DNA of 64,000 bases. Source: Nitrosopumilus sp. Lineage in GTDB: Archaea; Thermoproteota; Nitrososphaeria; Nitrososphaerales; Nitrosopumilaceae. A model generated the notes under the pieces. The model saw only the letters and a list, made by a program, of their open reading frames with translations. It did not search any database and was not told the DNA's origin. Location of the stretch: contig OZ240211.1 of the NCBI GenBank assembly GCA_965197525.1, positions 1,792,001 through 1,856,000 on the forward strand. Direction: 5' to 3'. Made by a program: the position numbers and the translations under genes. Below are positions 32,255 to 59,224 of this stretch, in pieces (positions within the stretch are counted from its first letter, which is position 1; the number at the start of each line of letters is the position of its first letter).

Positions 32255-32277
32255 CTAAAACGATTGAATTATATACA
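32255..32277 (+). repeat. attL-like 23-bp direct repeat
   Basis: CTAAAACGATTGAATTATATACA, identical to 57561-57583. Confidence 0.92.
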
Positions 32278-32545
32278 TAAAAATTTTTTTCGTGCGTGTA
32301 AAAAACAGATTCCTTTGTTGGTAATTTTGAATGAAAACTAGTAGACATTATGCAATGTTTTTTTGGTTGCATGTTACACAAGTCATGATTGTATCTAATT
32401 TAACGTTTCTTTGATTTTGGTTTTGGTAAATGTTGGGTCAATTGATATTATTTGATATCTCTTGATGTGGGGTTGATCCTTATTTGAGCTACTCTTTGAT
32501 ATTCTATCAAAAATAATGATGGCTTGGAAAAATCTGAATCTTTGT

Positions 32546-32850
32546 AATTGTTAGAAGATTAATTACCTTGCATGTAAGTAATTGTTAAAACAATTGTTAG
32601 AAAATATTTTGTAATTATACAAACTATTAGAGAGTTGCTCAACTTACGAGTAAGAAAAAGTTAGAAATAAAATTAGTGCGTAAGTTTTGCAGTAATCCGC
32701 GCGTAAGTTTCCAAGCTAGGATCTAGTTTTAACTTCTAACAAATTAGAACTTTCTCACAATTACTAAATTTGTTAATTTTCTAACTTTTTGGAATATGTT
32801 AGATTGATCAGAAATCATGTATATTGATTTATGTACAATTCTAACTTTTT
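32546..32850. repeat. Dyad-symmetric array of six TTCTAAC motifs
   Basis: Minus-strand copies at 32550, 32596, 32660; plus-strand copies at 32734, 32779, 32839; central GCGTAAGTTT x2 (32678, 32701). Confidence 0.75.
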
Positions 32851-33086
32851 ATCTATAGTAATCAAATCAATTTTGTAATTGTAAACGTCACTAATTCCTA
32901 TCTGATTATTATACCATGTCTGAAAAACCTAATTTTCACCCTTTATAATATGGATACTTCTTTCACAATTTGTAACAACACCTGACACAAAAATCTTCAT
33001 AATCTGGACATTCCTCATATGTAAGGATTAATTTTTCTTCTGCACTGGAACATAAATTTCAATAACACTATTTATCCTATCATGCA

Positions 33087-33749
33087 TTATTTTTCTTCTA
33101 CTCGGTAATCTATTCTTTTTATCACGTTTACCACAAAGTCAAAATTCTGAATCAATGTTTGATCTTTTTCTGGATGAAGATTCTTTTTTATTTCCTCTAT
33201 GCCGCACTCGACTAGCAGACTTGCTATATCTCTATAATATTTTTTGTACTTGTCTCTGTACTGATCGTCACTATCTTCTTTGGATTTTTTGTATGTGACA
33301 CGTCTACCAAGATCTTGACGTATTATTCCCTGTGGATGAAATGCAAATATAGAATCTAATAGTTTTTTCATCATATCCAAATTAAAGATATCTGTGGCAA
33401 GTTCTCTTTGAAGATTCTTAAACTGTTGTAATACGTACTCCTCTCCTATGAGATTGAAACTTAGAGTAGATCTTACTATATCTGAATTCAGATCCGTGTA
33501 TTTCTCTCTTATGTATTTTGTATTCTGATCTGTGGATTTGTCTGGAGTAATGTTGGATATTTTGATTACTTCCGATAACAACATAAATGCATCCATAGTG
33601 TTTGTTATCTTGCTTCTGATATCCTTTTTTGCCTTGGATAACCTCTTAGTCTCTGTCTTTGACTTGTATTTTACTCCAAATTGTTGGTTATAATGACCCT
33701 TGAGAAAATCTAATATCTTTTTTTCAAATTGACTGGGTTCATCACTCAT
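33087..33749 (-). CDS. Hypothetical protein (first ORF inside the island)
   Basis: 220-aa Lys-rich ORF, no recognised motif. Confidence 0.65.
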   Translation of the reverse strand: MSDEPSQFEKKILDFLKGHYNQQFGVKYKSKTETKRLSKAKKDIRSKITNTMDAFMLLSEVIKISNITPDKSTDQNTKYIREKYTDLNSDIVRSTLSFNLIGEEYVLQQFKNLQRELATDIFNLDMMKKLLDSIFAFHPQGIIRQDLGRRVTYKKSKEDSDDQYRDKYKKYYRDIASLLVECGIEEIKKNLHPEKDQTLIQNFDFVVNVIKRIDYRVEEK

Positions 33750-34018
33750 GATTAATATTGGTCGAACTATCTTAAAAATCTACTATATATAACGAGACAT
33801 TATATTTTACAGAGCATAGTTTGGATTTGCATTGTTAAATCTTTGATTGTTTTCAACCATCTGTTAAATTAAATTGATAAAATTTTCACTCTGGTACATC
33901 TTCGAGGAATTTCGTCAAATTGAAACTACTGTTACATTTGAGTGTCAATGTGTTACTTTAGAGGGATGATTTACATGCTTTTGACATGTGTTTTATATGC
34001 TTAAATCCTACATTTCTA

Positions 34019-34835
34019 ATGGGTAACATGGGTGAAAATCTTCCAATCCGTATTCATCAAACTTTGGTGAATCTTTTGGGAATGTACACATATGATGATG
34101 AAGTGCTGATACTTGAATCTGTTGCCAACGGAATTGACGCAAAAGCTTCTGAAATAAAAATAAATTTCCATAAAGAAGAAAGTAACAATTTCATAGATAT
34201 ACACAATAATGGAGATCCCATGTCCAAATCGGATTTTGCAAATTATCATACGATTTCACTATCCAGTAAAAAAAGGACAGCCGATCGGTTTTGCTGGTGT
34301 GGGAGCAAAAATATTTTTAGGTTCACCACATGGCAAAGAGATAATTACAATTACAGGGGATGGTAAGAACTTCTTTCTTTCGAGAATGTATAGGAATAAA
34401 AGTGATGTTAAATATGAAACGAGTTTGAAAAATTTAAAAACCGACGACGGAAAACTGGTGCCAAAAAACTATAGACAGTTAAAAGGAACTACATACAAGG
34501 TTAAGTTACCAGTTCTAATTTTGAATCATTTACAAGAATACATTGTAGACATAATCCAATTTTGGTTTAATCAAGGAATACTGACAAATAAGTTATCAAT
34601 CAGCGTAGACGGTAAAAAAATAAATGCATGGGAGCCGGTAGGATAGAAGTTCAAAAGAACACTAAAACACAAATCCCATGAAATACCATGTTACTTTTAT
34701 ATATGTAAGGAACCAATTATGGAAGACCGCCGACACCTGACGTCAGATTTGGAGTACGTTTTGGTTAGATGCATATGCAGATTGTTTAAAATGTGGGTCA
34801 GATATGGACTCTTGTACGTGTTATACTTGATTTAA
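34019..34835 (+). pseudogene. GHKL (Hsp90/MORC-like) ATPase pseudogene
   Basis: ESVANGIDA, NNGDPM, GFAGVGAK motifs split by a frameshift at A7 (34268-34274); in-frame TAG at 34644-46; truncated. Confidence 0.8.
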
Positions 34836-34965: not shown

Positions 34966-35202
34966 CGCAATTTCAAAATATTACAGAACAATCAGGTTTA
35001 ATCTTGATCTATTTAAATATCTGTACAGATCTACTCCGAAGATCCTAACGAACTTTGTCTCGTAGATATGCTATTCAGCGTTTACTGTCATGTGCAACGC
35101 AATTTCAAAATATTACAGAACAATCAGGTTTAATCTTGATCTATTTAAATATCTGTACAGATCTCCTTCGAAGATCCTAACGAACTTTGTCTCGTAGCTA
35201 TA
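34966..35202 (+). mobile_element. Two tandem IS630 right-end remnants
   Basis: Both copies match the 3' end of the 11692-12790 element (...GAAGATCCTAACGAACTTTGTCTCGTAG); second ends TAGCTA-TA. Confidence 0.9.
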
Positions 35203-35528: not shown

Positions 35529-36179
35529 ATGGTTGAATTAATTAATAAAATAATGATTGTGGGGATAATTTCTGCAGTAATTATTATTGGCATGATGTCT
35601 TCTACAATAAACACATCTTTGTTTGATGATTCTTTAACTTGGGCAGCACTCATAATTTCAATATCTGCCGGAGTGATCATAACCCTAATTGTAGATAAAA
35701 AATCTTCAGATTCACATAATGAAGTAGTTGGTGCACAGAATGAAATTTCTAATCTTTTAGCACGTTTAGATGAAACTGATCAAAAACATGATGAAGCATT
35801 ATCTAAATTAAATCAAAGTAGAATAAAAAATGAAGAATTAGCAAAAAATTCAGTACTTTCGTCTTTATGCTATATCGAATCTATGTTTGATAAATTAATT
35901 TCAGCTTTAAAGAATAATCCCTTAACGGGTAAAGACATGAAATTAATTGTAAATGTGCTAGATCATTTAGAATCTCCCTTAAACATAATTGAACAAGCTA
36001 TACCACAAAGTAGTATTGAATTTAAGAGACATGGAACGGAAATACAAGATATAACTATGCTTATTCGAAGATTAATTATTGCGTCAGTAGCAGTATCTGA
36101 TGAGGAAGCAAAGAGAACATTTACTTTGATAGAAAAAACTCATCCAAAATTGAAGGCATTGATTCATAAAATCTCTTAA
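35529..36179 (+). CDS. Membrane protein with two N-terminal TM segments and coiled coil
   Basis: Hydrophobic stretches near aa 8-28 and 38-56; converges on the ASCH gene with 4-nt overlap. Confidence 0.7.
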   Translation: MVELINKIMIVGIISAVIIIGMMSSTINTSLFDDSLTWAALIISISAGVIITLIVDKKSSDSHNEVVGAQNEISNLLARLDETDQKHDEALSKLNQSRIKNEELAKNSVLSSLCYIESMFDKLISALKNNPLTGKDMKLIVNVLDHLESPLNIIEQAIPQSSIEFKRHGTEIQDITMLIRRLIIASVAVSDEEAKRTFTLIEKTHPKLKALIHKIS

Positions 36180-36562
36180 AGATAATAGTTTATTTTCCCT
36201 TTCATGTATTGCTGCAAAGAAATAACATTTTTTACCCACACTTGTGCCCCTTGAGGATGAAAATACCGTTTTGGACGAACAAATTTCTCAGTAACTTCCA
36301 CTTCCCAGACATAAGTTGAAAAAGAATCATCCAAACCATCTAAATTGGAATTATGCAGATGAACAGTTTTTTTTAATTCATCTACATCAAACGGACCTAA
36401 ATTTTTTTTAATTTTGATCTTGCCCAACATGTTTCCTTGGCTTAAAAGGAGAATTGTATTTCCTATTTTTGATTTTGGTACGGGTTTACTTCTTAATTCC
36501 CATCGTTTATTTCCGTCTATTATAAGATCTGCAAAAGGAGATTTTACAATTAATCCGTCCAT
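36176..36562 (-). CDS. ASCH-domain protein
   Basis: LIVKSPFADLIIDGNKRWELRS (GxKxxExR), G.I.I, YVWEV, GAQVW motifs. Confidence 0.88.
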   Translation of the reverse strand: MDGLIVKSPFADLIIDGNKRWELRSKPVPKSKIGNTILLLSQGNMLGKIKIKKNLGPFDVDELKKTVHLHNSNLDGLDDSFSTYVWEVEVTEKFVRPKRYFHPQGAQVWVKNVISLQQYMKGKINYYL

Positions 36563-36565
36563 ATA

Positions 36566-37816
36566 TCATCCACTTTTATAATTCTTAATTTTTCTTTCTA
36601 ACGAACTAACTCTATTTTCGATTACGTCCTTGTCTATAATTGTCAAATCATTCCTAGCTAACTGGGCTAATGTAGATTTTCCTTCATTGTTATCTAGATA
36701 TTTTTTCAATCCTACAAACATATCTAAAGAGTGCTTCATTAGTACTTGATGTCTTTTGGTTAAATTCCTATAATCTGTTTTTTCTAATGAGATAGGAGAT
36801 AAGTCAGGATGAATCAAATGTTTCCAAAATTCCAAACAATTTATTAATATTCTAACTTTTTCTTTCCTTCTTATTTTTAACTTAGTTTCTGAGGATTCCA
36901 ACACATTAAACTCATAACACTTGTTGAGATTTTCACCTTCATTAATTGCATACAACGATAAAATCCTTACAAAACATGCCATGCAGATACCACACATTTT
37001 TGAAATCCCTTGAGACGTAGAACAGGACCATGTATATTGAATTAGTTTAGGTTCTTTGCTTGCTAAAATCACTTCCGATTTAGTTAATTCACTAAATGGC
37101 ATTTCAATTTGGAATTTTTTACCTGAAATTTCTTCAAAAATCCTTGTCCATTCTGAAATCATGTACGGATCTGTCGTTCGTGTAGGAGAAACTAACATTG
37201 AAACTGGATAATTTATCATGAAAGGTCCGTTTTCTGGTATTATTACTCGTTTGATGTCATATTCTGCTGCCATACACAGTAAGTTTGTGAGAAATGTTAC
37301 GCCCCTAACATGCAACAAAGGGATGTCTACAGTACGTTCTAACCCTAAATCAGTTTCAACTTTTGCGTGGTTATGTGGTATGCAATTTTGATAAACTGTT
37401 CTTGCAACTCCTTGCATTCTGTTACTGGTTATGGTGTGATTCAACAATCCACATTTGGTTCTATTTTGTTGTAACAATGGAAAAGATGAACTGTCAAGAC
37501 CGCCTGAGTAGAGACTCACAAAATCAAATGTAGCATCGCCAGGAAAACGTGTTTGTATTCCTGTTTTTGTTCTTTGTGAAAACTTAATTTTTATGACTCT
37601 GTCAGTCATAGTTTCATAAAATAACATTATATCGTCTAATTTTACATTAAATCGTTCAGGATCTGTAACTTTGATTTCAATTTCAGTGGAAAGGTGTTGT
37701 CTTGCTTCTGCAAGATGCACTCCAATTAGCAATTGTTGAAAATCTAAATATTCATCAGAAATTTTAAAATGTGCTTGATTTTGCCCGAATGTATTTTTTG
37801 GGGAAGTGTTAGTCAT
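36566..37816 (-). CDS. QueC-family PP-loop enzyme of the QatC/Cap9-like (defence) type
   Basis: SLYSGGLDS, PENGPFMINYP...TRTTDP, TKSEVI, WSCS...CGICMACFVR; N- and C-terminal extensions beyond tRNA-pathway QueC. Confidence 0.88.
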   Translation of the reverse strand: MTNTSPKNTFGQNQAHFKISDEYLDFQQLLIGVHLAEARQHLSTEIEIKVTDPERFNVKLDDIMLFYETMTDRVIKIKFSQRTKTGIQTRFPGDATFDFVSLYSGGLDSSSFPLLQQNRTKCGLLNHTITSNRMQGVARTVYQNCIPHNHAKVETDLGLERTVDIPLLHVRGVTFLTNLLCMAAEYDIKRVIIPENGPFMINYPVSMLVSPTRTTDPYMISEWTRIFEEISGKKFQIEMPFSELTKSEVILASKEPKLIQYTWSCSTSQGISKMCGICMACFVRILSLYAINEGENLNKCYEFNVLESSETKLKIRRKEKVRILINCLEFWKHLIHPDLSPISLEKTDYRNLTKRHQVLMKHSLDMFVGLKKYLDNNEGKSTLAQLARNDLTIIDKDVIENRVSSLERKIKNYKSG

Positions 37817-38122
37817 TTATATCACTTCATCTCCAATTTCGTTTTCAAGTTCTGATAAAAGAGAATCTCCAAAATCTTTATTTTGGCTAGAATTGATAAT
37901 TGTTTTTAGTTCTTCTATTGTTTTATTTTTAATCTCTCTTACTATTTTCCTAGCTGATTGCGCAGCATTGTGTTCCGCTTCTCTAAGTAACAGATCCCGT
38001 TGTTTTCTAACTTCGGGTTTTTCAATTTCTGTTAACGACGCTTCGATTTCTAATTTATAAGCTGAATAAAATGTATTTTTATATAACTTAAAAAAATATT
38101 CCTGCTGATCTATTGTCAGCAT
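37817..38122 (-). CDS. Small helical hypothetical protein, translationally coupled
   Basis: TAATG overlap with upstream gene; stop abuts the QueC start. Confidence 0.75.
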   Translation of the reverse strand: MLTIDQQEYFFKLYKNTFYSAYKLEIEASLTEIEKPEVRKQRDLLLREAEHNAAQSARKIVREIKNKTIEELKTIINSSQNKDFGDSLLSELENEIGDEVI

Positions 38123-38475
38123 TAGTTTTCACCTCTATCAGATAATGTGTTGTAAAGTGCTTGACGAATGGAGTCTTTTCCAGCTAATGTTAGGTTTTTC
38201 TTAATATCACTAGGTATTTTTGAAACTGCATTACCAGAAATTTTTTTGATTGATTGTTCAGTAGTTGTTTTTGGAGATCTGTACGCAGAAATACCTGCTG
38301 CCAAAATACCGGTAATATAATCAGAACCGCCACTTTCTCTTACAGCTTTAGAAACTGTATATGCTGCTTTTTTATAATCGCCTTTGCTTATGTGGCTATC
38401 AAGTTCTTTTTTGAATTTTCTAGTTCGAACTTTCGTCCCTCGTCTGGTTAATTTTCTGCTAGGTTGGGTCCCCAT
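38122..38475 (-). CDS. Basic hypothetical protein starting MGTQPS (QatB-like candidate substrate)
   Basis: Start reassigned from 38520 to ATG 38475, 28 nt below a TTATATA box; 117 aa. Confidence 0.65.
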   Translation of the reverse strand: MGTQPSRKLTRRGTKVRTRKFKKELDSHISKGDYKKAAYTVSKAVRESGGSDYITGILAAGISAYRSPKTTTEQSIKKISGNAVSKIPSDIKKNLTLAGKDSIRQALYNTLSDRGEN

Positions 38476-38501
38476 AACTTTAATTAAAAACATGCATAAA
38501 A

Positions 38502-38510
38502 ATATATAAG
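38502..38510 (-). promoter_or_regulatory. TATA box of the QueC-ASCH operon
   Basis: CTTATATAT on the minus strand at leaderless-promoter distance from ATG 38475. Confidence 0.6.
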
Positions 38511-38876
38511 TTTTCAACACATCTTGGGATTGTGGAGGGCAGTATGATGAAAAACACTATTGTATCTACTTGTTATATTATAACATACAGAGATTCGGCG
38601 TTAGGCTCAATTGCATAACAGCCTCATTACAAATTCCACTTAAATATCATATTATCTATAGAATATAAAGAGGAGACAATATGGGGAAATAGATCTTGAA
38701 TAGCGAAAATGTCAAAATCACTGTCAGTACGCCATTATTCGGCCTTGAAAATTATTCACATATTGAAAGAATTTTCAAAGTTGAAGCAGAAGAAGAGCCC
38801 TCTTCCAAGTTTCGTTTTCAAGAAACAACGTGTATTGAGAACAATCTGATTGTTTTGGCAGAGCAAAATTAATTCG

Positions 38877-40043
38877 TTAAATTTCTTTCCACATCATTTT
38901 TTCATTATGAAGATCTATTGCATCAACTGGCATACTATTGTTTAGTTGATCAACAATCATAGTTCCTACTTGACTAGCTATATTTTGTTGCATTTGTTGT
39001 AATATTTGTTGAATTTGTACAGGTACACTTTGGACTAGAATGTCGGGTGGAAGTTGGATTGGAACATTGATGTTGAGGTTAAGCTGTGGCGGAGCCCGTC
39101 TAATTTTTTTCAACTGAAGTGGTCCGGAATATTCATGGCATTTGTTTACTGACTCTATACATGCAATAATTGCATTCTTCTCTGTATATTCCTCATGATC
39201 GTCGTTATCAAAATAAGCCAAAGGATTTGCAAATGAGTTAAGTTGTAAATCCTCTTCATACTGTAAGAATAAATCCCAGCATAGTTTTTCTAACTCTTTG
39301 TCCATATCCTCAACTTGTAATCCTATCTGTTTTGCTTCATGTCTTCCAATAGAATGACCGTGAATGAATGTTCGTTCAGTTAACGTTGCTATTATTTCTT
39401 GAATCTTCGTTGTAGTTAATGCAGGTTCTACTTGAGAAAGCATTTTTTTTGCAACTGCTCTAATATGGGAATGTACACGATTCACTTGACCCAGTGTAGG
39501 AGGGCTCAATGTATCTGTAAGGGATTTTGTTAATGACGCTAATGCATTTTGATCCGTAATCCCAACTTTATCCTTTATGAAAGATATGTATGATGATACA
39601 TCTTCTGTACTCATTGGTTTCATAACAGGACTTGTTCCAGGTGGTCCTTTTCCTTTTTGCTCTTCAATCATTTGTGGATCGATTGGACCCAGTTCTCCTT
39701 TCCTACTCATTACAATCTTGTCTGCACCTAATGCAGTTAAGGTGGTAGCACTGAATGCTTTATAGGGAATCAATACGTTCAAACTTTCACAATATTCTCT
39801 TAGTATGCTAATAATTGGCCATGGGGTATCCAAATTACCGCCTAGTGAGTAGAGATAGAAATCAATTTTTTTAATTTTCTCATCACTGTTCATATTTTTT
39901 AGATGTTCGTAAAGCCATCTAATGGAATCACCTGCGATTCTAGCATTTAAAATAGGTCTATCCCCTACAAAATACACTAGAACTTTCGAATCACGATGTG
40001 ATTCTATTTTCCTTATAATCTCCTTACGTTCGGTTCTTCCCAA
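38877..40043 (-). CDS. SDH-family (DUF114) ClpP-fold serine protease
   Basis: LYSLGGN, AFSATTLTALGAD, GELGPIDPQ, FIHGHSI motifs. Confidence 0.85.
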   Translation of the reverse strand: MGRTERKEIIRKIESHRDSKVLVYFVGDRPILNARIAGDSIRWLYEHLKNMNSDEKIKKIDFYLYSLGGNLDTPWPIISILREYCESLNVLIPYKAFSATTLTALGADKIVMSRKGELGPIDPQMIEEQKGKGPPGTSPVMKPMSTEDVSSYISFIKDKVGITDQNALASLTKSLTDTLSPPTLGQVNRVHSHIRAVAKKMLSQVEPALTTTKIQEIIATLTERTFIHGHSIGRHEAKQIGLQVEDMDKELEKLCWDLFLQYEEDLQLNSFANPLAYFDNDDHEEYTEKNAIIACIESVNKCHEYSGPLQLKKIRRAPPQLNLNINVPIQLPPDILVQSVPVQIQQILQQMQQNIASQVGTMIVDQLNNSMPVDAIDLHNEKMMWKEI

Positions 40044-40339: not shown

Positions 40340-40406
40340 CGAAACAAATACGACTTTATGTCCCTAATTTAACACCTTACTGAAAACTCCCTAATTTTTA
40401 AGTGTA
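40340..40406 (+). repeat. Dispersed intergenic repeat A, also at 51226-51294
   Basis: CGAAACAAATACGACT(T/C)TATGTCCC(T/G)AATTTAACACC...AAAACTCCC...AGTGTA. Confidence 0.85.
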
Positions 40407-43859: not shown

Positions 43860-44537
43860 ATGAATTCAAATATCAAAGTATTTCTCAGTCATTCTCACAT
43901 GGACAAAAAAATCGCTTCTGAACTAAAATCGAATTTATCAAGATATGGATTGTCTGTTTTTCTTGCCCATGAAGATATTGAGGCAGGTGCACATTGGCCA
44001 TCCAAGTTGTATGAAGAAATTCAAAATTCAAAAATATTTATCATGCTGCTTACTAAAAACTTTCATTCTTCACAATATACAGATCAGGAAACCGGTATTG
44101 CAATTGGTTGTAAGAAAACGATCATACCAATTTGTATAGATGGAACAATACCCTACGGGTTTGCACATACTAGACAAGCAATAACCTGTTCGTATCCATT
44201 TGAAGAATCTAAAATTGAGAATATTGCAAAAATTTGTAAAATAAAGCCTGTATCTAACAGTTTCTCAGACTTGGATAAACTACTTTCAGAATTAGCAAAT
44301 TCTGATTCATATGCTGAATCTATAAGGATCTCTTCAAAATTAAAACAATATGGTAATTTTTCAGAATCTCAAATCTTTCAACTTATTTCAGCACTTGACA
44401 ATCCTCAGGTGTCTTACTCGTATGTTACCAACACGATCATAAATGAGATCCTAGAGGAGTACATTGATAATGCTAGGCCTGCTTTGCGTAGTTTACTAGA
44501 ACAATATCATGATCCTTCACATCCTTCTCTCAACTAG
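43860..44537 (+). CDS. TIR-domain protein
   Basis: KVFLSHSHMD, AHEDIEAG, SQYTDQETGIA (catalytic Glu position intact), IPICID. Confidence 0.92.
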   Translation: MNSNIKVFLSHSHMDKKIASELKSNLSRYGLSVFLAHEDIEAGAHWPSKLYEEIQNSKIFIMLLTKNFHSSQYTDQETGIAIGCKKTIIPICIDGTIPYGFAHTRQAITCSYPFEESKIENIAKICKIKPVSNSFSDLDKLLSELANSDSYAESIRISSKLKQYGNFSESQIFQLISALDNPQVSYSYVTNTIINEILEEYIDNARPALRSLLEQYHDPSHPSLN

Positions 44538-44736: not shown

Positions 44737-45531
44737 CTACACCTTCATATTATACTTACACTTCTCAATTTGTCTATAAAGATAGCTAATAAAACTGAGT
44801 ATATCTAAAGCGTCTTGTTTGTTTATTTGGTGATCGGATTGAGGTTCATGTTCAACGGGGTTTCGTATTGCTTTCATCAAGCCCATACATAAATACATTA
44901 AGCCGTCTTGTAAATTTTGTTCTGTCATAGTTGTGTTTTTATTTAATTTTAATGAGCCATTCTGATTTAGTGCACTAGACATCAATTTACTGCCGTGTTC
45001 TGTTACTTTGGATTTTTTTGAAACACATTTTTCAAATGCTTTACAACATTCATCGACTGCATCAAAATAATGCTCTGCTTTAAATTGCGGTCTAGCATTT
45101 TTTGCTACTTGACTATGAAATTGTCGCATGTTGAACAAATTGTTATTTTTAATTGTTTTATTGGAGGTTCCTTGTTTTCTAGGAATTGCTTCTACTTTGT
45201 TTTGATTATTTATATGGAGAGAACAAGATTTCAAACACTCGTTAAATTTTTTGATAATTTTTTCTTGTCTCTTTGAGTTTCCGATATGTTCTTGAGAATC
45301 ACATATACTTTCTATAAGTACAAGAATTTTATCTGATCCTGATACATGTTGGATTTTTATAAAGATGTCATGTAGCTGGCTCCGTATTTTCCAAGATGTA
45401 ACAGAATAATCATCATCTATTTCTTTGAGAATTCTATTAATTTGGGATATTTCTCTAAACTCTTTAACGATGATCTTCGCAAATGCATACAGAGTAGGTG
45501 ATTTAAATTTCGTTATGTCGCCATTTATCAT
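44737..45531 (-). CDS. TIGR02391-family protein (HEPN-like RNase domain)
   Basis: FHSQV...HYFDAVDECCKAFE...GSKLMSSAL...IRNPVEHE (RxxxxH intact). Confidence 0.88.
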   Translation of the reverse strand: MINGDITKFKSPTLYAFAKIIVKEFREISQINRILKEIDDDYSVTSWKIRSQLHDIFIKIQHVSGSDKILVLIESICDSQEHIGNSKRQEKIIKKFNECLKSCSLHINNQNKVEAIPRKQGTSNKTIKNNNLFNMRQFHSQVAKNARPQFKAEHYFDAVDECCKAFEKCVSKKSKVTEHGSKLMSSALNQNGSLKLNKNTTMTEQNLQDGLMYLCMGLMKAIRNPVEHEPQSDHQINKQDALDILSFISYLYRQIEKCKYNMKV

Positions 45532-46502: not shown

Positions 46503-47477
46503 TCACTCAGATTCAAGCGTGACTGATATAGGAAAGTGGTCAGAAAATCCATTCTCATCATAAGTTCTGTTTCTGGAAGGACGGCCAAACCTGCGCGGCT
46601 TGCCTCTGCGTGCCATCTCAGATGAATTCTCAATTCTCATCGAATCCAGTTTAACTGATAGTCCTGTCTTCCTGCTAGGCAATAGTCCTTTTGAGACCAT
46701 CATCTGGTCAAGAGCAGATCCTGTTCCTCCATAATAGTGGGTACCCAATCCCTTGGCCATCAGAGGCCACATCAGGTTGTAGAATTTGGGTTTTCTGGCT
46801 CTCAGTACTTGTCCCTTATTATTAGTGGCCAGTGCATGTTCCATTACAGAGCGGTTAAATGGCTCGTCATTAAAATCCCCCATTGCGATTACTGCTACGT
46901 CTTTTCCGTGTACCTCTACTATTCTCTCATGAAAATATGCCAAGGTTTCACCAGCTATGAGCCTGTAGGGCTCAGACTCAAATGTTCCGCCCATTCTTGC
47001 AGGCCAGTGATTCCCCACCAGCACCAGCAGCCTGCCACTCTTCTTTATCTTCAGATTCACCTGGAACAGGTCCCGTGTCGCATTTCTTTTTACAATAAAG
47101 TGCGAAAATTTTTCTTTCAACTGAAATAAATCCGCATCGTAGATGAACGCAGTATCGATCCCACGGTTATCCTTGCCATCATAATGTGCAATTTTGTAAT
47201 TTCTCTCAAGGGGGATTTTAGTAGCTAGTTTTTTCAACACTTCTCTACTCTCTACCTCGCAGACTCCCAAGATGTCAGGCCCTGCACCGTCGTTTATCTG
47301 TACTATTATTTTTGATAGCTGTGAGATCTTTTTATTCAGAACAGTACTGTTCCATCCCTTTAACTCCTTTCCAAGCATGCGCTTCAGCTTGTTCCCACGT
47401 GGCGCATTTTGAGAATCAAAAAGGTTCTCAACATTCCACCAGGATATACAATATTCTTTCACGCGTATCCTATACAC
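46503..47477 (-). CDS. Endonuclease/exonuclease/phosphatase (EEP) family nuclease
   Basis: WWNVENLFD, LGVCEVE, GNHWPAR, MGDFNDEP, LDQMMVS, SDHFPI. Confidence 0.93.
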   Translation of the reverse strand: MYRIRVKEYCISWWNVENLFDSQNAPRGNKLKRMLGKELKGWNSTVLNKKISQLSKIIVQINDGAGPDILGVCEVESREVLKKLATKIPLERNYKIAHYDGKDNRGIDTAFIYDADLFQLKEKFSHFIVKRNATRDLFQVNLKIKKSGRLLVLVGNHWPARMGGTFESEPYRLIAGETLAYFHERIVEVHGKDVAVIAMGDFNDEPFNRSVMEHALATNNKGQVLRARKPKFYNLMWPLMAKGLGTHYYGGTGSALDQMMVSKGLLPSRKTGLSVKLDSMRIENSSEMARRGKPRRFGRPSRNRTYDENGFSDHFPISVTLESE

Positions 47478-47963: not shown

Positions 47964-48710
47964 TTAGATCAACTTGATTTTTTTCAAAGCCTCTGTCAAT
48001 CCTACTAACATATCTTCCATCTTCTTATGTGAGAAAGTTAGATAAGTAGCACGCATTTGTATGTTGGAGGGAATTTCAACTTTCTCTTCTGCAATAATTA
48101 TTACGGGCTTGTTAGTTGCCTGCCCAATCTCATCTATCACGTTTTGACTTGAATAAAAAACCTCTTGTCCATTTTTATCTGACTTGATGTCCTTTGTAAG
48201 TATGGCTAGTAGTGCGTTTGATTGACTAATCAAATCACTTGCTTGACTACTGGGAGACAAGTCTGCCCTTCCTGTTTCTTTAGCAGAAAGAACGGTGAAC
48301 CCTAGAGCCTTAAACAACCTACTCACTAGATCATAGAGATTATCATTCTTCTCCTGCATAGCAAAACTGATGAATATTGTAATACCTTCTAAAGAGAATG
48401 GTGGCATTCCCTCTTTGAAGGGAACAGACGTTCTCAAGGGCCCATCATCTGCACGATATCTAAACTCACATCTAATTCCTGAATTGCATTGAATAACTAC
48501 AAGTCCATTTTGTCTCCTTAGTTTGCGAATTTTTACCAGTTCAATGAGTTTAGAGCCAAAGGGTTTTACTTTGTCACGCTTAGTTTCATAAACTATACCT
48601 CCATTAGAATCAAAAAACTTTATCGAGTATTCCTGTTCGAGACTGCTTAAATTCACCAATATCATCTCGCTGTGCCCCCACTGCATGTCATAAATTCCGG
48701 TTAAATACAC
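47964..48710 (-). CDS. Beta-rich N-terminal domain fused to a TIR-like nucleotide-binding domain
   Basis: C-half IFISFA...ALLAILTKD...SQNVIDEIGQA...PVIIIAE...IPSNI. Confidence 0.75.
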   Translation of the reverse strand: MYLTGIYDMQWGHSEMILVNLSSLEQEYSIKFFDSNGGIVYETKRDKVKPFGSKLIELVKIRKLRRQNGLVVIQCNSGIRCEFRYRADDGPLRTSVPFKEGMPPFSLEGITIFISFAMQEKNDNLYDLVSRLFKALGFTVLSAKETGRADLSPSSQASDLISQSNALLAILTKDIKSDKNGQEVFYSSQNVIDEIGQATNKPVIIIAEEKVEIPSNIQMRATYLTFSHKKMEDMLVGLTEALKKIKLI

Positions 48711-49631: not shown

Positions 49632-51032
49632 CTAAGCACCTAACCATATGTGCTAAGCAGACAAAGAAATTCAGATGGTACAAAGCATAAACCGGCAGAC
49701 GGCAAGACATCTCGTGTAAAGAGGGTAAAAAAGACTGGAAAAACAAAGAAACAGATTACCCTCAAAAAGAGTGTAGCTGTGAAACAGAAATCCGTTATGC
49801 AAGCCAGGACTGCAACAAAACCCTCTGCTACAAGGATCAAAAAAACCAAGGTGGAGCAAAAAATATTTTTTGGGTTGGACCTGCACAAAAAATCCCTTCA
49901 GGTTGCGGCTGTAGATCCAAAAGGAAATCTTTTGATGAACAAGAGGATTGAAAACGACTTTAAGATAATCGAGCAAGAGTTTTCAGCGTTTCCAAAAAAT
50001 GCAAAATATGTATTGGAGTCATCATCCGTGTGGTATGGCGTATACCAAAAACTTGTGAGGGATCTGGATCTTGACGTGGTCATGTCAAACCCCTATCTTA
50101 CGCGCCTTATAGCAAAATCCAAAAAGAAGACCGACCGGTTTGATGCGCATGCACTAGCAGACCTGCTCAGGGGAGGTTACATCCATGAATCGTATGTCTC
50201 GCCTCCAAAAACCGTCGAGGAAAAACGGGCCATACGCTTTCGTACAAGAATGGTACGGAGCAGAACCAGTATGAAGAACATGATCCACGGCATACTGCTC
50301 CAAGAATCAATCAAGATTCCAGGACCCACATTTACATCTGCATTTAACAGGGCACTGCACGGCCTGAAGAATTGGAGGATAGATGAGTATCTGCAAGGCA
50401 TCAGATCCCTCGATGAGCGCATAGGCAGTGCCAATCTTAAGATAAACGACATGGTCAAAGACAACGAATATGCACAAATTCTCATGTCAATACCTGGAGT
50501 AGGCAAGTTTACCGCACTTTCCATCGCATCAGAGATAGATGATATCAGCAGATTCCAGAACCCTGACAAGCTAGTATCATACATTGGATTGGCTCCATCA
50601 GTGAGAAACTCTGCAGGAATAACACATCATGGAAAGATAACCCATGCCGGTAACGCGACTGTGCGATGGGTTCTCACAGAGGCTGCACTTGTACATAGGA
50701 TACATGCAAAAGAGACGACTGTCTTGACAGAGTTTTACAAACGTGTTGCAAGAAAGCGAGGAACAGCCAAGGCCATCGTTGCAACGGCGGCTAAGATGTT
50801 GCGTATTATATTTTGGATGCTAAAAAAACGAATTACCTTTGCAGAATGTCAAAGACAACGTACAGAATCATGTAGAAATGCAAAGGCAAAGCATTTGAAG
50901 AATATAAAGGATAAGAAAAGTGTAAAGAGTAAGAAAAGTGTAAAGAGTGTGAAACAACTTGCAAAAAAATGAATTGCGTATGACTGAATGTCAGGAGATT
51001 ATGGTTAGGGATTTGCGCGATGTAAAGTGTGA
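49632..51032 (+). mobile_element. IS110-family element with 10-bp sub-terminal inverted repeats
   Basis: CCTAACCATA (49639-48) / TATGGTTAGG (51000-09); GTGA at 49628-31 and 51029-32; boundaries inferred from reconstruction of the empty site. Confidence 0.7.
49650..50972 (+). CDS. IS110-family DEDD recombinase/transposase, apparently intact
   Basis: GLDLHK, VLESS, KTDRFDA; SIPGVG and GLAPSVRNSAG; Lys-rich N- and C-terminal tails; true start may be internal. Confidence 0.93.
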   Translation: MLSRQRNSDGTKHKPADGKTSRVKRVKKTGKTKKQITLKKSVAVKQKSVMQARTATKPSATRIKKTKVEQKIFFGLDLHKKSLQVAAVDPKGNLLMNKRIENDFKIIEQEFSAFPKNAKYVLESSSVWYGVYQKLVRDLDLDVVMSNPYLTRLIAKSKKKTDRFDAHALADLLRGGYIHESYVSPPKTVEEKRAIRFRTRMVRSRTSMKNMIHGILLQESIKIPGPTFTSAFNRALHGLKNWRIDEYLQGIRSLDERIGSANLKINDMVKDNEYAQILMSIPGVGKFTALSIASEIDDISRFQNPDKLVSYIGLAPSVRNSAGITHHGKITHAGNATVRWVLTEAALVHRIHAKETTVLTEFYKRVARKRGTAKAIVATAAKMLRIIFWMLKKRITFAECQRQRTESCRNAKAKHLKNIKDKKSVKSKKSVKSVKQLAKK

Positions 51033-51294
51033 GTTTTTATGCTCGGAGCCTAACTGCGATTAACTCTAATGAATGGATGAAGAATGGTGCTGAGTGATAG
51101 TGCTCGTATAGATATGTGTCCAACCATCTTCTAAGTGAAACATTATTCCTAGCCTGCGCTGTACTCCAACGCACAAAAATCCAGAAAATCTTTAAAAAGA
51201 GTGCACATAGATAACTTTACAGTCTCGAAACAAATACGACTCTATGTCCCGAATTTAACACCATGTCGAAAACTCCCAAGTTTGTAACAGTGTA
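51033..51294 (+). repeat. Repeat B (51033-51215) followed by repeat A (51226-51294)
   Basis: See copies at 46227-46418 (inverted), 40948-40998 and 40340-40406. Confidence 0.9.
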
Positions 51295-52381: not shown

Positions 52382-54745
52382 GTGAAAATATATCTAGTTA
52401 TGGATCACATTAATGTAGCATTTCCAGAAGAAAAACGTCCCATGATGTATAAGATGATGAAGTGGTGGGGAGGGAAGCCACATAATATTTGGTCAGAGTA
52501 CATAGAACGATATTCAAAGAAAAACGATATTGTTTTGGATCCGTTTTGTGGCCGAGGAGTTGGCGTTATAGAATCTGCAAGACTTGGAAGAAAAGCTATA
52601 GGTGTGGATATGAACCCAATAGCAATTTTTCAAACCAAGATATTATCCTCAAAATTAGATATTGACACCTTCAAATTAGAATGGGACAAGATGAAGCAAA
52701 TATTGGTAGATATTGAAGAGTGTTCTGGATTGTTCCATACAAAATGTATCAAATGTAAACAGAACGCACGACTGGGTACAATGAATCGAGATAATGGAAC
52801 ACCTTATCGAATATTTTACTATTGTAAATGTACTCCAAAGAAAGCATTAAAGAAAGAACCTACATCTGAGGACATTGCGGTGGTTGAAAAATCAGACAAT
52901 ATGGAGATAAAACTTCCATATCCAAAGGACAAATTTCCAAAATCTCAGGCTTTCAAGGTAGCAATAAAGAATTTTGGTGATACGTATGACAAACTTTTCA
53001 CAAGACGCAATTTGTATGCATTGGCAGTAATTTTTGACCAAATTGAAAAAATCAAAGATAAGGACATAAAACAATTCTTTCAGTTCGCATTTATATCCAT
53101 GATTCATCTGGTTACCAAAATTCCAAGTGTACGAGAAAACTCAAACCGTGTAATGTCTGGAAGTTGGGGTCGCCCTGGTTTTCTTAAAATGAAAAAGAAC
53201 ATGGAACTGAACCCATTTATCATATTTGAGAGATCTATAGAGGGTAGGCAGGGTGTGATAAAAGGAAAAATGAACTCAAACAAACGATTGAAAGATGGTA
53301 TAAAATATGCTAAAGAAATGAATGATCTGTCATCCAAAAATAATATATTATTGCTTAATCACAATACCGCAGAGCTAACCAATCTGATTCCTGAAAATAG
53401 CGTTGATTATGTAATTACTGATCCTCCATATGGTGGGTTAATTCCATATTTTGATCTTAGTTCAGTATGGAGTATGTGGTTGAAGTTAACCGACACGTCA
53501 TTTTCAATGCCATTTGATGATGAAATTACAATCGACGATTATAAAGATAAACCGTTTGATGAATATCACAGAATGCTATCATTATGTTTTGGAGAAATCT
53601 ACAAAGTGCTCAAACCTGGAAAATATATGACTGTAACATTTCATAATAAAAAACCGAAAATATTCAACTCAATCTTAAGAGCATGTCAGGATCATGGATT
53701 TGTTCTTGAAAAAATATTATTTCAGATGAATAAAAGAGCTGGAGAGACAGGTGCTTCTAGTCCGTGGGGGACATCAGTCAGTGATTTTTATATTCGATTT
53801 TTCAAACCGAAGGAAAAAGTCCACACATTATCAGAATATCTTCCAACAAAATTTCAAATGATTGTAAAGAATGAAGCAAAAAAAATCATAGCTAATCGTG
53901 GGGAACCAACAGAAATTTCTGCTATGATACCTCACATATACACAGAGATGGGAAAATCAGGAATGCGAATAGATTTTACTGGAGATAAACAAATATCCAC
54001 AATTTTACACGGTGATAGTGACTTTGTAGAAATGCCAAATAAACAATGGTGGTTGTCTACAGATGCGTTACAAAAACACAGGCTTCAAACTCCGTTGTCC
54101 GAACGGGTTGAAATAGCAGTGTTGTCAATTTTGCAGAAAAAATACAAGGTGTCTTTTGACGAAGCCCTGCAATCTATATTTGAACAATTTCCAAACTCAA
54201 TGACGCCAAATACGGAAAGTGTAAACAATTATCTAAAACAATATGCGAAAAAAACATCTGACGGAAAATGGAAGTTGAACCCTGGTTTTGACGAGAATAC
54301 GTTATCTCGAGAACACACTAGAATGGAAGCCATTTTATGTAAACTTGGAAAGCGTTTTGGATACAAGGTGTGGTGTCCAGACCGTAACAAAGACAAAGAA
54401 ATGAATGAGATATGCGAAGAGTTTGATTTAGAAATGATTCATGCGGATAGGATTAAACAAATTGATGTATTGTGGATAAGAGATAATGAAGTAAAGTATG
54501 CATTTGAGGTAGAAAATTCAACAAGCATAACATCAGCTCTTGAAAGATGCTCACATATCACAAATATGGGTGTGAATAAAATTATAGTGATTCCAAAGGA
54601 AAGAGAAACTTTTCTTGCACGAAAGAAGAAAGAACCGATGTTTTTAGATTATTTCCAAAAAGATAACTGGAAAGTGTTATTGTATGATGATCTTGAAAAC
54701 CATGATCGTGGAACTGAACAAGCATTATTACAGCTGGCACAATAA
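52382..54745 (+). CDS. Amino-DNA methyltransferase with Zn ribbon and C-terminal PD-(D/E)xK-like domain (MTase-nuclease fusion)
   Basis: DPFCGRG (motif I), CxxC...CxC, TDPPY (motif IV), IDVLW...AFEVENST. Confidence 0.85.
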   Translation: MKIYLVMDHINVAFPEEKRPMMYKMMKWWGGKPHNIWSEYIERYSKKNDIVLDPFCGRGVGVIESARLGRKAIGVDMNPIAIFQTKILSSKLDIDTFKLEWDKMKQILVDIEECSGLFHTKCIKCKQNARLGTMNRDNGTPYRIFYYCKCTPKKALKKEPTSEDIAVVEKSDNMEIKLPYPKDKFPKSQAFKVAIKNFGDTYDKLFTRRNLYALAVIFDQIEKIKDKDIKQFFQFAFISMIHLVTKIPSVRENSNRVMSGSWGRPGFLKMKKNMELNPFIIFERSIEGRQGVIKGKMNSNKRLKDGIKYAKEMNDLSSKNNILLLNHNTAELTNLIPENSVDYVITDPPYGGLIPYFDLSSVWSMWLKLTDTSFSMPFDDEITIDDYKDKPFDEYHRMLSLCFGEIYKVLKPGKYMTVTFHNKKPKIFNSILRACQDHGFVLEKILFQMNKRAGETGASSPWGTSVSDFYIRFFKPKEKVHTLSEYLPTKFQMIVKNEAKKIIANRGEPTEISAMIPHIYTEMGKSGMRIDFTGDKQISTILHGDSDFVEMPNKQWWLSTDALQKHRLQTPLSERVEIAVLSILQKKYKVSFDEALQSIFEQFPNSMTPNTESVNNYLKQYAKKTSDGKWKLNPGFDENTLSREHTRMEAILCKLGKRFGYKVWCPDRNKDKEMNEICEEFDLEMIHADRIKQIDVLWIRDNEVKYAFEVENSTSITSALERCSHITNMGVNKIIVIPKERETFLARKKKEPMFLDYFQKDNWKVLLYDDLENHDRGTEQALLQLAQ

Positions 54746-55582
54746 TCAGATTTTTCTAAAATTTAAAAGATATTGGTGTACATGATTTATTTTGAAAGCA
54801 TATGGGTATCCAAAAGGGTACAAAGGTTTGCTGTCCTGAATAAGTACAATATTGCCAACAAACTCAAAGCCTATGTCCTGCATGAGTTGTATCATATCTC
54901 CATGTGCGTTGATCTCTTTCTTGTTTACTGTGAAATCGCTGATTACTATGGTACAATATTTTTTCTGCTTGAGTTTCTTATACAATTGAATCATTATTTT
55001 TTTGACTGATGTAAGATACGAGTTGTATGTTTTCTTATTTCCTACATCATTGGCGTCATCAGAATAATATTCAACTCCTTGTCTCGTCTGGCTACCGTCA
55101 TGTCTTATTCCTAATCCCTTGTTTTTCAATATGTTGTGATATGGAGGGGATGTAACGCAATAATCAATCATATCTAATTTTTTAATAACTTGTAAAGAAT
55201 CATCATTGATTATGGTGTAATCTTTTTTCATTATTTTGGCCTTGCGAAGTCTCTTTCTTGCAAGTTTACAATAATCCTTATTCAATTCAATACCTATACC
55301 AAAACGATTAGTCATACCAGCCGATAATATTGTAGTTCCACTCCCCATAAACATGTCTAGAACACGATCATTTTCCTTTGTAAATAGCTGAATTAGTCGT
55401 TTAATATCCTCCGTTAAAAATGGGGCTGGATGTTCAAAGGCATCTTTATCTAGAACGTTTTTTTTACTCGTCCAGACACTTTTTGATAACCGTAACCATT
55501 CCTTCCCTGTAAGATTATTGACTTTGTTTCTCTTATCATAGATCCCTCGCTCTCCTTTGTCTATCTTTGATATTATGGACAT
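54746..55582 (-). CDS. N4/N6 amino-DNA methyltransferase
   Basis: HPAPF, LDMFMGSGTT, TSPPY. Confidence 0.92.
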   Translation of the reverse strand: MSIISKIDKGERGIYDKRNKVNNLTGKEWLRLSKSVWTSKKNVLDKDAFEHPAPFLTEDIKRLIQLFTKENDRVLDMFMGSGTTILSAGMTNRFGIGIELNKDYCKLARKRLRKAKIMKKDYTIINDDSLQVIKKLDMIDYCVTSPPYHNILKNKGLGIRHDGSQTRQGVEYYSDDANDVGNKKTYNSYLTSVKKIMIQLYKKLKQKKYCTIVISDFTVNKKEINAHGDMIQLMQDIGFEFVGNIVLIQDSKPLYPFGYPYAFKINHVHQYLLNFRKI

Positions 55583-55765
55583 CTACTCTACACTACCTTT
55601 TCTTTTTACTTTATCTAAAAACATATTATTGTTTTCAAGCCAGTATATGACTCTTGTAATATTTGTGGGATTTGTTACATATTTTCCGATCAAACCATCT
55701 ATGATTTTTATATGGGTTTTAGTAAAAGATGAATAAATTTTCTCATTATATTGTGTTGTTTTCAT
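55583..55765 (-). CDS. Small ribbon-helix-helix-like protein, possible regulator
   Basis: 60 aa; stop abuts the MTase start; strand-helix-helix pattern. Confidence 0.5.
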   Translation of the reverse strand: MKTTQYNEKIYSSFTKTHIKIIDGLIGKYVTNPTNITRVIYWLENNNMFLDKVKRKGSVE

Positions 55766-56588
55766 ATTTACTCATAAGTAGATCTATTATTAAAAGACTG
55801 ATTAACAACGATTCGTAAGGATTTAAGACCGTACCTGAATGTTTACCTTTGGTCATACTTAATTCCACAATCTACGTACATGGATCACGGATTCAACACA
55901 AACAATATGGGTACGTCTGGTACAATCCTTCCATACAATGAGTTGCAAACATGGTAGATCAATTTAAAATTTATCAGACAAAACAGTGAACGAATACACA
56001 AATAAATTGAAACAATCCGATTCTGAAATTGATCTATTAAGCATAAACACTTGATATAGGTATTTTTCCCATTACTGTGTTTGAGGTAAAATTTGGCATC
56101 CAATATTCTTCAAAACAAGGATTATTTTTCCAATAACGCTTTTTTGTTTTTTATCATCAAAAGGAATTGTTATATTGAAGATGTTGGGTTTTACTTGTGA
56201 ATAATATTTTGTACACAGTAGCTGGCCTTTGTCTCTACCTTAATCATGATTCTAAATCTGGTTTTTACATCAGTTTGTCTATTCTTCTTTACTGAATATC
56301 TTTTGCTAGATGAATAATTTGAATAATTCCTTTAATCCATCTAGTATCAGAGCCAGTATTAATTATTATTTTTAACTATTATTTAATTTAATTTTTAATT
56401 AATCTTTGATTGTCATAATCACACATTACAGATCTTTAAATAAACATCTTGCTGAAAACTAAGAAAACATTCTAAGGTTGAGCAAAGCAAAATAATAAAC
56501 TATGTTGCATTTGGACTGAATAAATAATATAATCGTGTTTCTGATATCAAAAAATTCTATAATTTTTTATTTAAATACATGATATATT

Positions 56589-57542
56589 TTATTTAGAATT
56601 ATTTATCAGCAGATCAGGCTCAAATTTGATATAGTGTTCCAATCTTTCACTCACTGTCAATCTGTCATACATAAGCAAATCTCTTGACTGTTCCTGTCCT
56701 GCAAAATATTTTGCAAGATTTGGATCGTGGCGTGAGATCTTGGTAATAAAAAATGCCCTAAAACTATGTGTTGTTATCTTGTGATGTCCTGATTCATATT
56801 TCTGATCAAGTCCTGCTCTCTCTAGATACTTTGTTAGCATCAATTCGTAATGATTACATATGTTTACAGGATTTGCACCTCCTCGGAAAAAGACTCTATC
56901 ACTATCATCTATTCTTCTCAGAATAGGTATCAGCAATGGTCTCACCTCTTTGCTAAAAAAAGTCACCCTTGACTTCTTTGTTTTTGTAATGCTGGCAGGA
57001 ACATTTACCATAATTCTCTCCTGAGTGGTATCTAGGTCTTTTTTGCGCAATTGTAGTAATTCTCCTCTTCTTAGTCCACTTGATGACTGTGCCAATATCT
57101 TGATTGCATTGTTCTTGTTACTTACTGCCAATATTCTCGTCATCTCTTCTCTTGAAAGTGGGTGTCTCTCTTCCTTAATCCTGTGAGGAAAATTCAACTG
57201 CTCTACCACATCCTCTTTTGCGATCTTTATTCCATGATATCTGAGATATGCTTTAAGATGTGAAAACAGTGTAGGGATGCTATTTGCATATATTCTATTA
57301 CTATTCCAATTTATCCAGTCTTGTAGAGAATCATAGACCAGTTCCATCTCGACTTTACGATATTCTTTTATTGTATCATCTACCGTCCTGTTATACCTCT
57401 TACTGCAGAATAACTCAAAATTCCTTATAGATGACTGGGATGCCTTTTGTGTATTGATCGCTTTTGTGCGTATTTTTTCCTCAAAACTCACTCGATCTCT
57501 GGTTTTCTGTAAAAAGGTAGACATATATCTAATATCTACCAT
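56589..57542 (-). CDS. int: Tyrosine recombinase/integrase
   Basis: SSGLRRGELLQL (R), TKTKK (K), HSFRAFF (HxxR), LLMYDR (Y); starts 19 bp from attR. Confidence 0.93.
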   Translation of the reverse strand: MVDIRYMSTFLQKTRDRVSFEEKIRTKAINTQKASQSSIRNFELFCSKRYNRTVDDTIKEYRKVEMELVYDSLQDWINWNSNRIYANSIPTLFSHLKAYLRYHGIKIAKEDVVEQLNFPHRIKEERHPLSREEMTRILAVSNKNNAIKILAQSSSGLRRGELLQLRKKDLDTTQERIMVNVPASITKTKKSRVTFFSKEVRPLLIPILRRIDDSDRVFFRGGANPVNICNHYELMLTKYLERAGLDQKYESGHHKITTHSFRAFFITKISRHDPNLAKYFAGQEQSRDLLMYDRLTVSERLEHYIKFEPDLLINNSK

Positions 57543-57560
57543 TCTCTCTTAAAAGTGTGC

Positions 57561-57583
57561 CTAAAACGATTGAATTATATACA
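57561..57583 (+). repeat. attR-like 23-bp direct repeat
   Basis: CTAAAACGATTGAATTATATACA, identical to 32255-32277. Confidence 0.92.
57575..57581 (+). promoter_or_regulatory. Probable TATA box of the nuo operon, inside the att core
   Basis: TTATATA about 25 nt upstream of in-frame TTG at 57606. Confidence 0.55.
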
Positions 57584-59219: not shown

Positions 59220-59224
59220 TACCG

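Follow-up and report, generated by a model that had tools for sequence, protein, structure and literature searches.

How a mobile element comes to lie in the promoter region of an essential respiratory operon, and which of the bases at its ends belong to the host, are the questions raised by a 25.3-kb island in a Nitrosopumilus sp. chromosome. The window, which is the whole stretch of DNA that was analysed, comprises 64,000 nt (GCA_965197525.1, contig OZ240211.1, positions 1,792,001-1,856,000) of a complete chromosome of 2,210,164 bp, and all coordinates below are relative to it. The island separates a peroxiredoxin gene, ahpC (31572..32036, minus strand; Pfam PF00578, E 2.6e-30), from the complex I operon nuoA (TTG start), nuoB, nuoC, nuoD and nuoH (57606..61659, plus strand; PF00507, PF01058, PF00329, PF00346 and PF00146). 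A preliminary description had presented it as an integrative element that targets the complex I promoter instead of a tRNA gene and uses a 23-bp repeat, taken to be that promoter, as its attachment core. The explanation that best covers the whole of the evidence, and that can be put forward with good though not full confidence, is that of a site-specific cryptic element which carries a defence island, recombines over a core overlapping the nuoA TATA box, would have entered the scar of an earlier resident and belongs to a putative subfamily of promoter-docking integrases.

The 23-mer is present in two exact plus-strand copies, attL (32255..32277) and attR (57561..57583), which lie 25,306 bp apart and remain identical at 26 of 27 positions when extended. 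No third copy occurs in the window at up to three mismatches, where shuffled sequences give an expectation of zero, and just these two copies are found in the whole genome at up to two mismatches. A gene for a tyrosine integrase of 317 aa with a XerA-like fold (56589..57542, minus strand; PF00589, E 4.9e-13) adjoins the right copy. Flanking direct repeats with an integrase beside one of them, together with an empty target in related genomes, identify a site-specific integrative element, although that empty target shares only ~11-13 nt with the 23-mer. The GC content of the island is 34.4%, against 39.6% for the genome, and none of the 25.3-kb windows sampled chromosome-wide falls below this value (minimum 34.5%, presumably in a window overlapping the island); this lowest GC, together with the defence-gene cargo, marks the island as foreign. 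There is no tRNA gene near it, Rfam giving just two tRNAs in the entire window, and its placement at the ahpC-nuoA promoter region was correctly described. The accompanying premise that archaeal elements usually target tRNA genes holds less well in thaumarchaea, where 15 of 68 elements are intergenic and a further 14 occupy the 3' ends of protein-coding genes (PMC6563490).

The nature of the target becomes apparent from relatives in which it is unoccupied. The nuoA-nuoB stretch was used as query against 40 relatives, with 151 species-level Nitrosopumilus genomes as the genus comparison set and 401 Nitrosopumilaceae genomes as the wider family set. In ~19 inspected genomes of the same genus, ahpC and nuoA are divergent and ~85 bp apart, with no island between them, and the sequence separating the two genes is ...CCAAAAACGAAACATACCTTTTTATACAAAAAT..., after which comes the conserved start of nuoA. 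These sites, like those of most of the 151 genus genomes, carry CATACCTTTTTATACAAAAAT in place of the 23-mer, and the ancestral 21-mer is the common form in the genus. All that the empty site and the 23-mer have in common is TATACAAAAAT, which covers the TATA box of nuoA and the few bases that follow, and, further upstream, a CC-AAAACGA block. The element-type 20-mer, at up to two mismatches, occurs in 13 of the 151 genomes and is absent from the other 138.

Both ends of related elements have been retained in G017, G216 and G392. At attL of these genomes the ancestral flank continues through TTTTTATACA(AAA) and then passes into a P' arm homologous to window positions 32278-32400, while attR consists of the integrase arm, the 23-mer and nuoA. 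The P' arm (32278..32400, plus strand), a non-coding stretch that adjoins attL and is alignable among the elements of G017, G216, G347 and G392, holds a run of seven T residues and a 6-bp inverted repeat, ATGCAA/TTGCAT. These junctions suggest that strand exchange takes place inside TATACAAAA(A) and, since attL is ancestral and the 23-mer is found only at attR, that the left part of the 23-mer travels with the element. The left 14-17 nt is thus element rather than host DNA, and the true identity between attB and attP is ~11-13 nt, a length typical of thaumarchaeal elements (PMC6563490, PMC8371274).

The shared bases coincide with a promoter signal. When the DNA ahead of 1,606 long open reading frames (ORFs) of this genome is scanned, hexamers of the TATA-like form TT[TA]A[TA]A peak at -31 to -27 from the ATG, with 20-28 per position over a background of ~6, which is the signature of leaderless or short-leader genes. 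For nuoA the hexamer is TTATAT, at -31 relative to the TTG; in the ancestral sites it is TTTATA, at -30, and for ahpC it is TTAATA, at -27. The nuoA box, which is the 3' part (TTATATACA) of attR, thus falls within the genome-wide peak, so that the att core coincides with the nuoA TATA box; the TTATATA reported ~25 nt upstream of nuoA is indeed located at 57575-57581, 25 nt ahead of the in-frame TTG (57606) that opens the PF00507 gene. Integration leaves nuoA with a TATA box at the usual distance, the 22-23 nt between box and start codon being retained, and the transcription factor B recognition element (BRE) region upstream is element DNA. On the other side, the TTAATA that begins 27 nt before the ahpC ATG is kept, homology to relatives extending to 32086, and the ahpC promoter is unaffected by the insertion. 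All occupied genomes, including those without an integrase, keep complex I behind the hybrid sequence, which argues that the hybrid nuoA promoter is functional.

In the proposed mechanism, the XerA-like integrase would recombine the short core TATACAAAAAT overlapping the TATA box of a leaderless-type nuoA promoter. The host would keep the TATA box and everything downstream, while the region just upstream (the BRE and beyond) would be swapped for element DNA, first the left 14-17 nt of the 23-mer and then the divergent promoter of the integrase, and the ancestral upstream half would remain at attL, facing into the island. Transcription of nuoA is predicted to start ~25 nt downstream of TTATATAC. 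In the library searched, none of the papers dealt with transcription start sites of Nitrosopumilus or with archaeal integrases that target promoters.

The left end of the present island differs from this simple scheme. Between the ancestral ahpC flank, where homology to relatives stops at 32086, and attL lies a filler of 168 bp (32087..32254), which takes the place of ~30 nt of the ancestral spacer, its TATA region among them, and for which no homologs are found in 121 genus genomes or elsewhere in the same genome. The element of G347 follows the same pattern, with the 20-mer at attL and foreign DNA to its left. The history probably involved two steps. An earlier element would have integrated in the ancestral manner, leaving an attR with the 23-mer before nuoA, and the present element would have recombined with that scar over a fully matching core, not with the ancestral site, the earlier element having since decayed to the filler. 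Insertion into a scar of the 23-mer type would explain why the repeat is perfect over 23 bp, and tandem re-use of one site has been documented in thaumarchaea (PMC6563490).

A survey of the site for other islands in Nitrosopumilaceae, which the preliminary description had recommended, revealed related elements or remnants in at least ten other genomes. The 20-mer was verified directly upstream of nuoA in G017, G216, G392, G343, G396, G397, G327, G331, G347 and G402 and is likewise found upstream of nuoA on a TARA ocean scaffold; the site is thus occupied, as verified, in 11 of the 151 species-level genomes, this one included. Where ahpC is nearby, the inserts measure ~1.2 kb (G327), ~7 kb (G017), ~12 kb (G392), ~14 kb (G216 and G331) and 25.3 kb (here). 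The 20-mer is identical across genomes whose nuoAB genes differ by 12-16%. Occupied and empty genomes are intermingled in a nuoAB tree, G000 grouping with the empty G023, G017 with the empty G015, G216 with the empty G014, and G343 and G392 with the empty G007 (support 99/97). As the marker is short and adjoins the integration site, the tree demonstrates repeated gain or loss, and not the number of events. The ahpC-nuoA site is a recurrent integration hotspot in Nitrosopumilus with changing sets of defence genes.

Several other features of the site were observed in individual relatives. In G343 ahpC lies 156 kb from the attR-nuoA junction and is inverted, and in G396 the distance is 94 kb; these displacements represent extensive rearrangements or else insertions of very large size, one end of which is at the att site. 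Two more distant species, G018 (locus L040) and G002 (L041), have a GC-rich insert of 1.8-2 kb between ahpC and nuoA and keep the ancestral CATACCTTTTTATACA directly upstream of nuoA. The nuoA-site inserts of G216 (L076), G392 (L088), G331 (L094) and G343 (L095) have in common further integrase-related proteins of ~310, 400 and 480 aa, along with a 490-aa partner; several are adjacent, recalling recombinase-in-trio modules, and the 310-aa protein belongs to PF00589.

The integrase itself was described as intact, which it is, and as starting 19 bp inside the right repeat, which is true of its first ATG; the conserved start is instead Met7, at 57524 and 37 bp from the 23-mer. In the homologs of G216 and G009, codon 6 is a stop and an ATG comes next; the gene call at locus L096 begins at the equivalent ATG, and the homologs at L116, L117 and L119 have no upstream start codon. 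Residues R158, K187, H259, R262 and Y292 are invariant in the family alignment and line up with the XerA structures 5hxy and 4a8e, and the second histidine of the catalytic set (the H/W position) is Gln throughout the family. A single-sequence search of the PDB with the integrase returned nothing; a family profile was needed and matches the XerA structures 5hxy (E 8e-12) and 4a8e. Identity with the chromosomal XerA was rejected, as the protein scores 63.5 against NCBIfam NF040815 (cut-off 220); it further differs in having Gln for the second histidine and a homolog in only 85 of 301 family genomes. It likewise departs from the SSV-type 'suicidal' integrases, which have attP within their gene and are split on integration, in that the core is located 37 bp beyond an ORF that has stayed whole, resembling in this respect the non-suicidal pNOB8-type archaeal integrases, whose gene is intact beside att. 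The close relatives of the integrase come from Nitrosopumilus metagenome-assembled genomes, and a tRNA gene occurs within 1.5 kb at only 3 of 29 homolog loci.

The preliminary description had further suggested that the TATA of the core may drive the integrase gene. This is unlikely, because the Met7 start has a separate TATA-like box, TTTTAAGA (57554-57547, minus strand), 22 nt upstream, the TATATAA of the core being 51 nt away. The integrase homologs have a TATA-like box at the same position, and its spacing to Met7 fits the geometry of ahpC, of nuoA and of the genome-wide TATA peak. A divergent promoter of the integrase's own is accordingly proposed at TTTTAAGA. An excisionase gene was not recognised. 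A candidate arm-type integrase site, GTAGACAT, occurs near both arms and was dropped, as the extended motif gives two matches against 1.5 expected.

The same integrase family is found at the 5' ends of other genes. On a 2.1-Mb ENA contig (L096), a gene for a 220-aa protein also found in the island and a 62%-identical integrase close an island with restriction-modification and HicAB genes, and 83 nt separate the start of the integrase from the ATG of an AsnC-type gene of 79 aa. This site is occupied in L096, L119, L117 and, by a remnant, in G392, and has its empty form in 27 of the 401 family genomes, from four genera, where the stop codon of the upstream gene is followed by ...CATAAT, then CGGTTTATTGATATAG and, 21-22 nt further, the ATG. 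In all four occupied cases the element DNA starts directly 5' of that TATA-containing block, the junction immediately preceding CGGTTTATTGATATA. At L116 a 58%-identical integrase lies 84 nt from an amino-acid-kinase gene, with the junction directly 5' of CTTTTTAATTG, and the empty form of this site is present in 44 of the 151 genus genomes. In G427 (L093, contig G427:C5, core at 116085) a nuoA-type 23-mer and an integrase fragment are joined, after AAAATCA, to a gene for a signal-peptide protein with its ATG ~22 nt past the TATA box, while the ahpC-nuoA site of the same genome is empty; this extra core is either a secondary target or a translocated remnant.

In these cases the Met7-equivalent start of the integrase lies 81-84 nt from the host start codon and the junction at -31 to -37, with a C[CT]AAAA[CT]G motif on the element side; the pattern is not clear among more distant homologs. 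This promoter-docking geometry is verified at three targets (nuoA, AsnC-type and amino-acid kinase). A broader proposal, offered here as a speculation, is that this integrase subfamily is specialised on archaeal core promoters, with an attP that imitates the BRE/TATA region and a core that sits on the TBP/TFB site. Each insertion would then swap the upstream control region of a host gene, and the element could tune, or hold hostage, essential operons such as that for complex I. Under such specialisation, some elements catalogued as 'intergenic' or as located in the '3' end of a protein gene' may be promoter insertions.

Other explanations of the locus can be set against this evidence. One is that coincidence or misassembly produced the repeat and that the AT-rich region is ordinary strain-specific DNA, given that short repeats arise easily in AT-rich intergenic DNA. 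This can be dismissed for practical purposes, however, as shuffles give an expectation of zero matches, the genome has only the two copies, the same core lies beside the same integrase family in ten other genomes, and the contigs of metagenome run X1 agree, with no differences, with the parts of the island that they cover. The literal model, which takes the entire 23-mer for the native promoter of nuoA and for a host attB that integration has duplicated, accounts for the perfect direct repeat and for a TTATATA at the expected distance from nuoA. It predicts a single 23-mer in island-free relatives, yet none of the ~19 empty sites carries one, the 20-mer is lacking in 138 of the 151 genomes and, in G017, G216 and G392, attL is ancestral. 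The literal model therefore fails, and it is retained here as very improbable.

An island that was once integrated and is now immobile, with variation at the site arising mainly by vertical decay and by homologous recombination via the conserved flanks, is the strongest of the rivals, even if it is distinctly unlikely. In its favour are the truncated or fragmented nuoA-type integrases of G017, G392, G327, G397 and G427, the large rearrangements in G343 and G396, the lack of a recognised excisionase and the lack of an excision product in the assembled contigs. Against it stand an integrase in this genome that is full length with all catalytic residues, a perfect 23-bp repeat, a 20-mer that has stayed identical while nuoAB diverged, clean empty sites interspersed with occupied ones on the tree, and the nuoA-type core with integrase fragment upstream of another gene in G427. 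A site-specific element that may still be mobile today is hence preferred, and certain observations weigh against it. The nuoAB tree is short (962 columns) and adjoins the site, and since many copies are decayed much of the distribution could be old. The filler is without relatives, which leaves the earlier resident element as an inferred step, and in G000, G331, G396 and G347 the core is bordered, almost to the same base, by DNA that is unrelated, a pattern that can only be explained by different elements with a conserved core. The attL ends of the elements at the AsnC-type and kinase genes were not located, and the nuoA promoter is assigned from position and conservation. Neither a circular attP junction nor an excised site, and no joint or loose end at the att sites, is seen among the listed assembled contigs aligned on the window, and contigs of this kind cannot show rare forms. 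One contig of run X3 changes exactly at 57561 to a different left flank of 194 nt, the sequence of which could not be read, and it is not evidence either way.

In bacteria, elements that act as switches at the 5' ends of genes include Listeria phi10403S in comK and SpyCIM1 at mutL, which block expression until excision. The present element similarly occupies the control region of a host operon, where its presence can change expression, but differs in that the operon appears to be expressed from the hybrid promoter. The nearest functional precedent is provided by the pTN3-like elements of Thermococcales, in which the promoter of the integrase drives the tRNA gene restored by integration, so that a host gene is transcribed from promoter DNA supplied by the element (PMC8371274). 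Those elements target the 5' half of tRNA genes, have a 'suicidal' integrase that is split on integration and long att sites, unlike the putative protein-coding operon promoters, intact integrase and ~11-13 nt shared core found here. In its general build the element is a cryptic integrated element in the scheme of Krupovic et al. 2019 (PMC6563490), integrase-borne and carrying a defence island. Like the thaumarchaeal elements of that study it has a XerC/D-like tyrosine integrase at one end, short att repeats and tandem re-use of its site; its size is near their median of 17 kb (they range from 2.6 to 98 kb), it lacks replication and virion genes, and its cargo includes restriction-modification and other defence genes. 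None of the elements in Table S2 of that study is located at nuoA or has this core, and the word 'promoter' is not in its main text. The overlap of the core with a TATA box, the replacement of the upstream promoter half and the recurrence of this geometry at three genes are new with respect to that catalogue.

Ammonia-oxidising archaea are among the most abundant microbes of the ocean, yet what is known of their mobile elements comes almost entirely from sequence. The integrase family identified here has its junctions at the TATA boxes of three different genes. If hybrid promoters work, an archaeal element can enter an essential promoter without killing its host by supplying a replacement upstream half. 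Such loci are also an experiment of nature that can show how much of the DNA ahead of its TATA box an archaeal promoter can do without. The short defined attB/attP pair could also be tried as an integration tool for organisms without genetics.

The cargo of the island is dominated by defence-related genes. A QatC-like protein, a ThsB-like TIR protein, a HEPN/PD-Lambda-3_B-like protein and PglX-like and type II methyltransferases are clustered here, as is characteristic of defence islands. The QatC/QueC-like protein (416 aa) is encoded in a four-gene cassette with an ASCH protein and two small proteins without assignment (36176..38520, minus strand; PF04266, PF06508; PADLOC QatC, E 4.7e-20), which is a candidate defence system. 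Adjacent to it is a gene for an SDH-type ClpP-like serine protease (38877..40043, minus strand; PF01972, with NCBIfam NF047768 below its cut-off). The ThsB-like TIR-domain protein (43860..44537, plus strand; PF13676, E 2.7e-21; PADLOC ThsB) is followed by the Hypoth_Ymh/HEPN-like protein (44737..45531, minus strand; PF09509, E 8.7e-33; PADLOC PD-Lambda-3_B-like, E 3.4e-23), an endonuclease/exonuclease/phosphatase (EEP) family protein (46503..47477, minus strand; PF19580, E 2.2e-63) and a second, weaker TIR-like protein (47964..48710, minus strand; PF10137, E 1.8e-5). An IS110-family transposase gene has been inserted in the island (49650..50972, plus strand; PF01548, PF02371), and two DNA methyltransferases, a PglX/type IIG-like protein of 787 aa (plus strand) and a type II N6/N4 enzyme of 278 aa (minus strand), are encoded at 52382..55582 (PF01555; PADLOC). 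Near the left end, a HATPase_c_3 (MORC/GHKL-like) gene appears to be broken up into a pair of overlapping ORFs, 126 and 145 aa long (33986..34646, plus strand; Pfam), and is probably a frameshifted pseudogene.

The gene for the 220-aa orphan protein (33087..33749, minus strand) is the only one besides the integrase gene that is kept across the element family, with homologs in the elements of G216, G392, G327, G427 and L096 and, by DNA, in G347 and G397. The protein has 24 database relatives. It matches no Pfam, PHROG, NCBIfam or PADLOC family and has no usable Atlas match; its AlphaFold model is poor (pLDDT 62.8), and a structure search with it returned generic helical matches only (Z of at most 7.2). 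Scans of the island with Pfam, PHROG and NCBIfam agree with the earlier statement that replication, conjugation and virion genes are not recognisable. Among the island ORFs scanned, several of which are unannotated, capsid, portal and terminase genes have no Pfam, PHROG or NCBIfam match, and VirB4/VirD4-type transfer ATPases and mating-pore genes are not detected by Pfam or NCBIfam. IMG/VR yields no relative of the integrase and no match to the core, and two JGI metagenome matches to the core have unrelated flanks and were set aside as chance matches.

The non-coding DNA of the island contains several repeats. TTCTAAC occurs in six copies between 32550 and 32845, arranged as a mirror array (three on the minus strand, then three on the plus strand) around two copies of GCGTAAGTTT in an 800-bp non-coding stretch beside attL; the array is real in this element and absent from related ones, so that a role as a conserved origin or as an arm site was rejected. 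At 34966-35201 a 132-bp unit is repeated twice in tandem, with 97% identity over 104 nt. A 181-nt inverted repeat (88% complementary; 46227-46407 and 51035-51215) brackets the EEP nuclease gene, the second TIR gene and the IS110 element, and a 62-nt direct repeat (85%) is found at 40340-40401 and 51226-51287. Metagenome-run contigs matching 50-51.3 kb have a depth far above that of the rest of the island.

Beyond the left flank, a 2.2-kb segment between a biotin-carboxyl-carrier gene and ahpC (29360-31571) contains an ORF of 490 aa (29834-31306) with no Pfam or NCBIfam match. It is missing in G017, G216, G392 and G327, where the biotin-carboxyl-carrier gene adjoins ahpC, and is a second, separate insertion. 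Further upstream, positions 13000-20600 of the window are GC-rich (50-57%) with a strong negative GC skew and hold a giant repeat-protein gene; rRNA was rejected as the cause of this GC-rich stretch on the basis of the Rfam search, which finds only the two tRNAs. The insert at the nuoA site of G017 (L039, 4671-7832) contains a gene for a repeat protein of 1053 aa that is 65-67% similar, at the nucleotide level, to positions 14.7-15.6 kb of the window.

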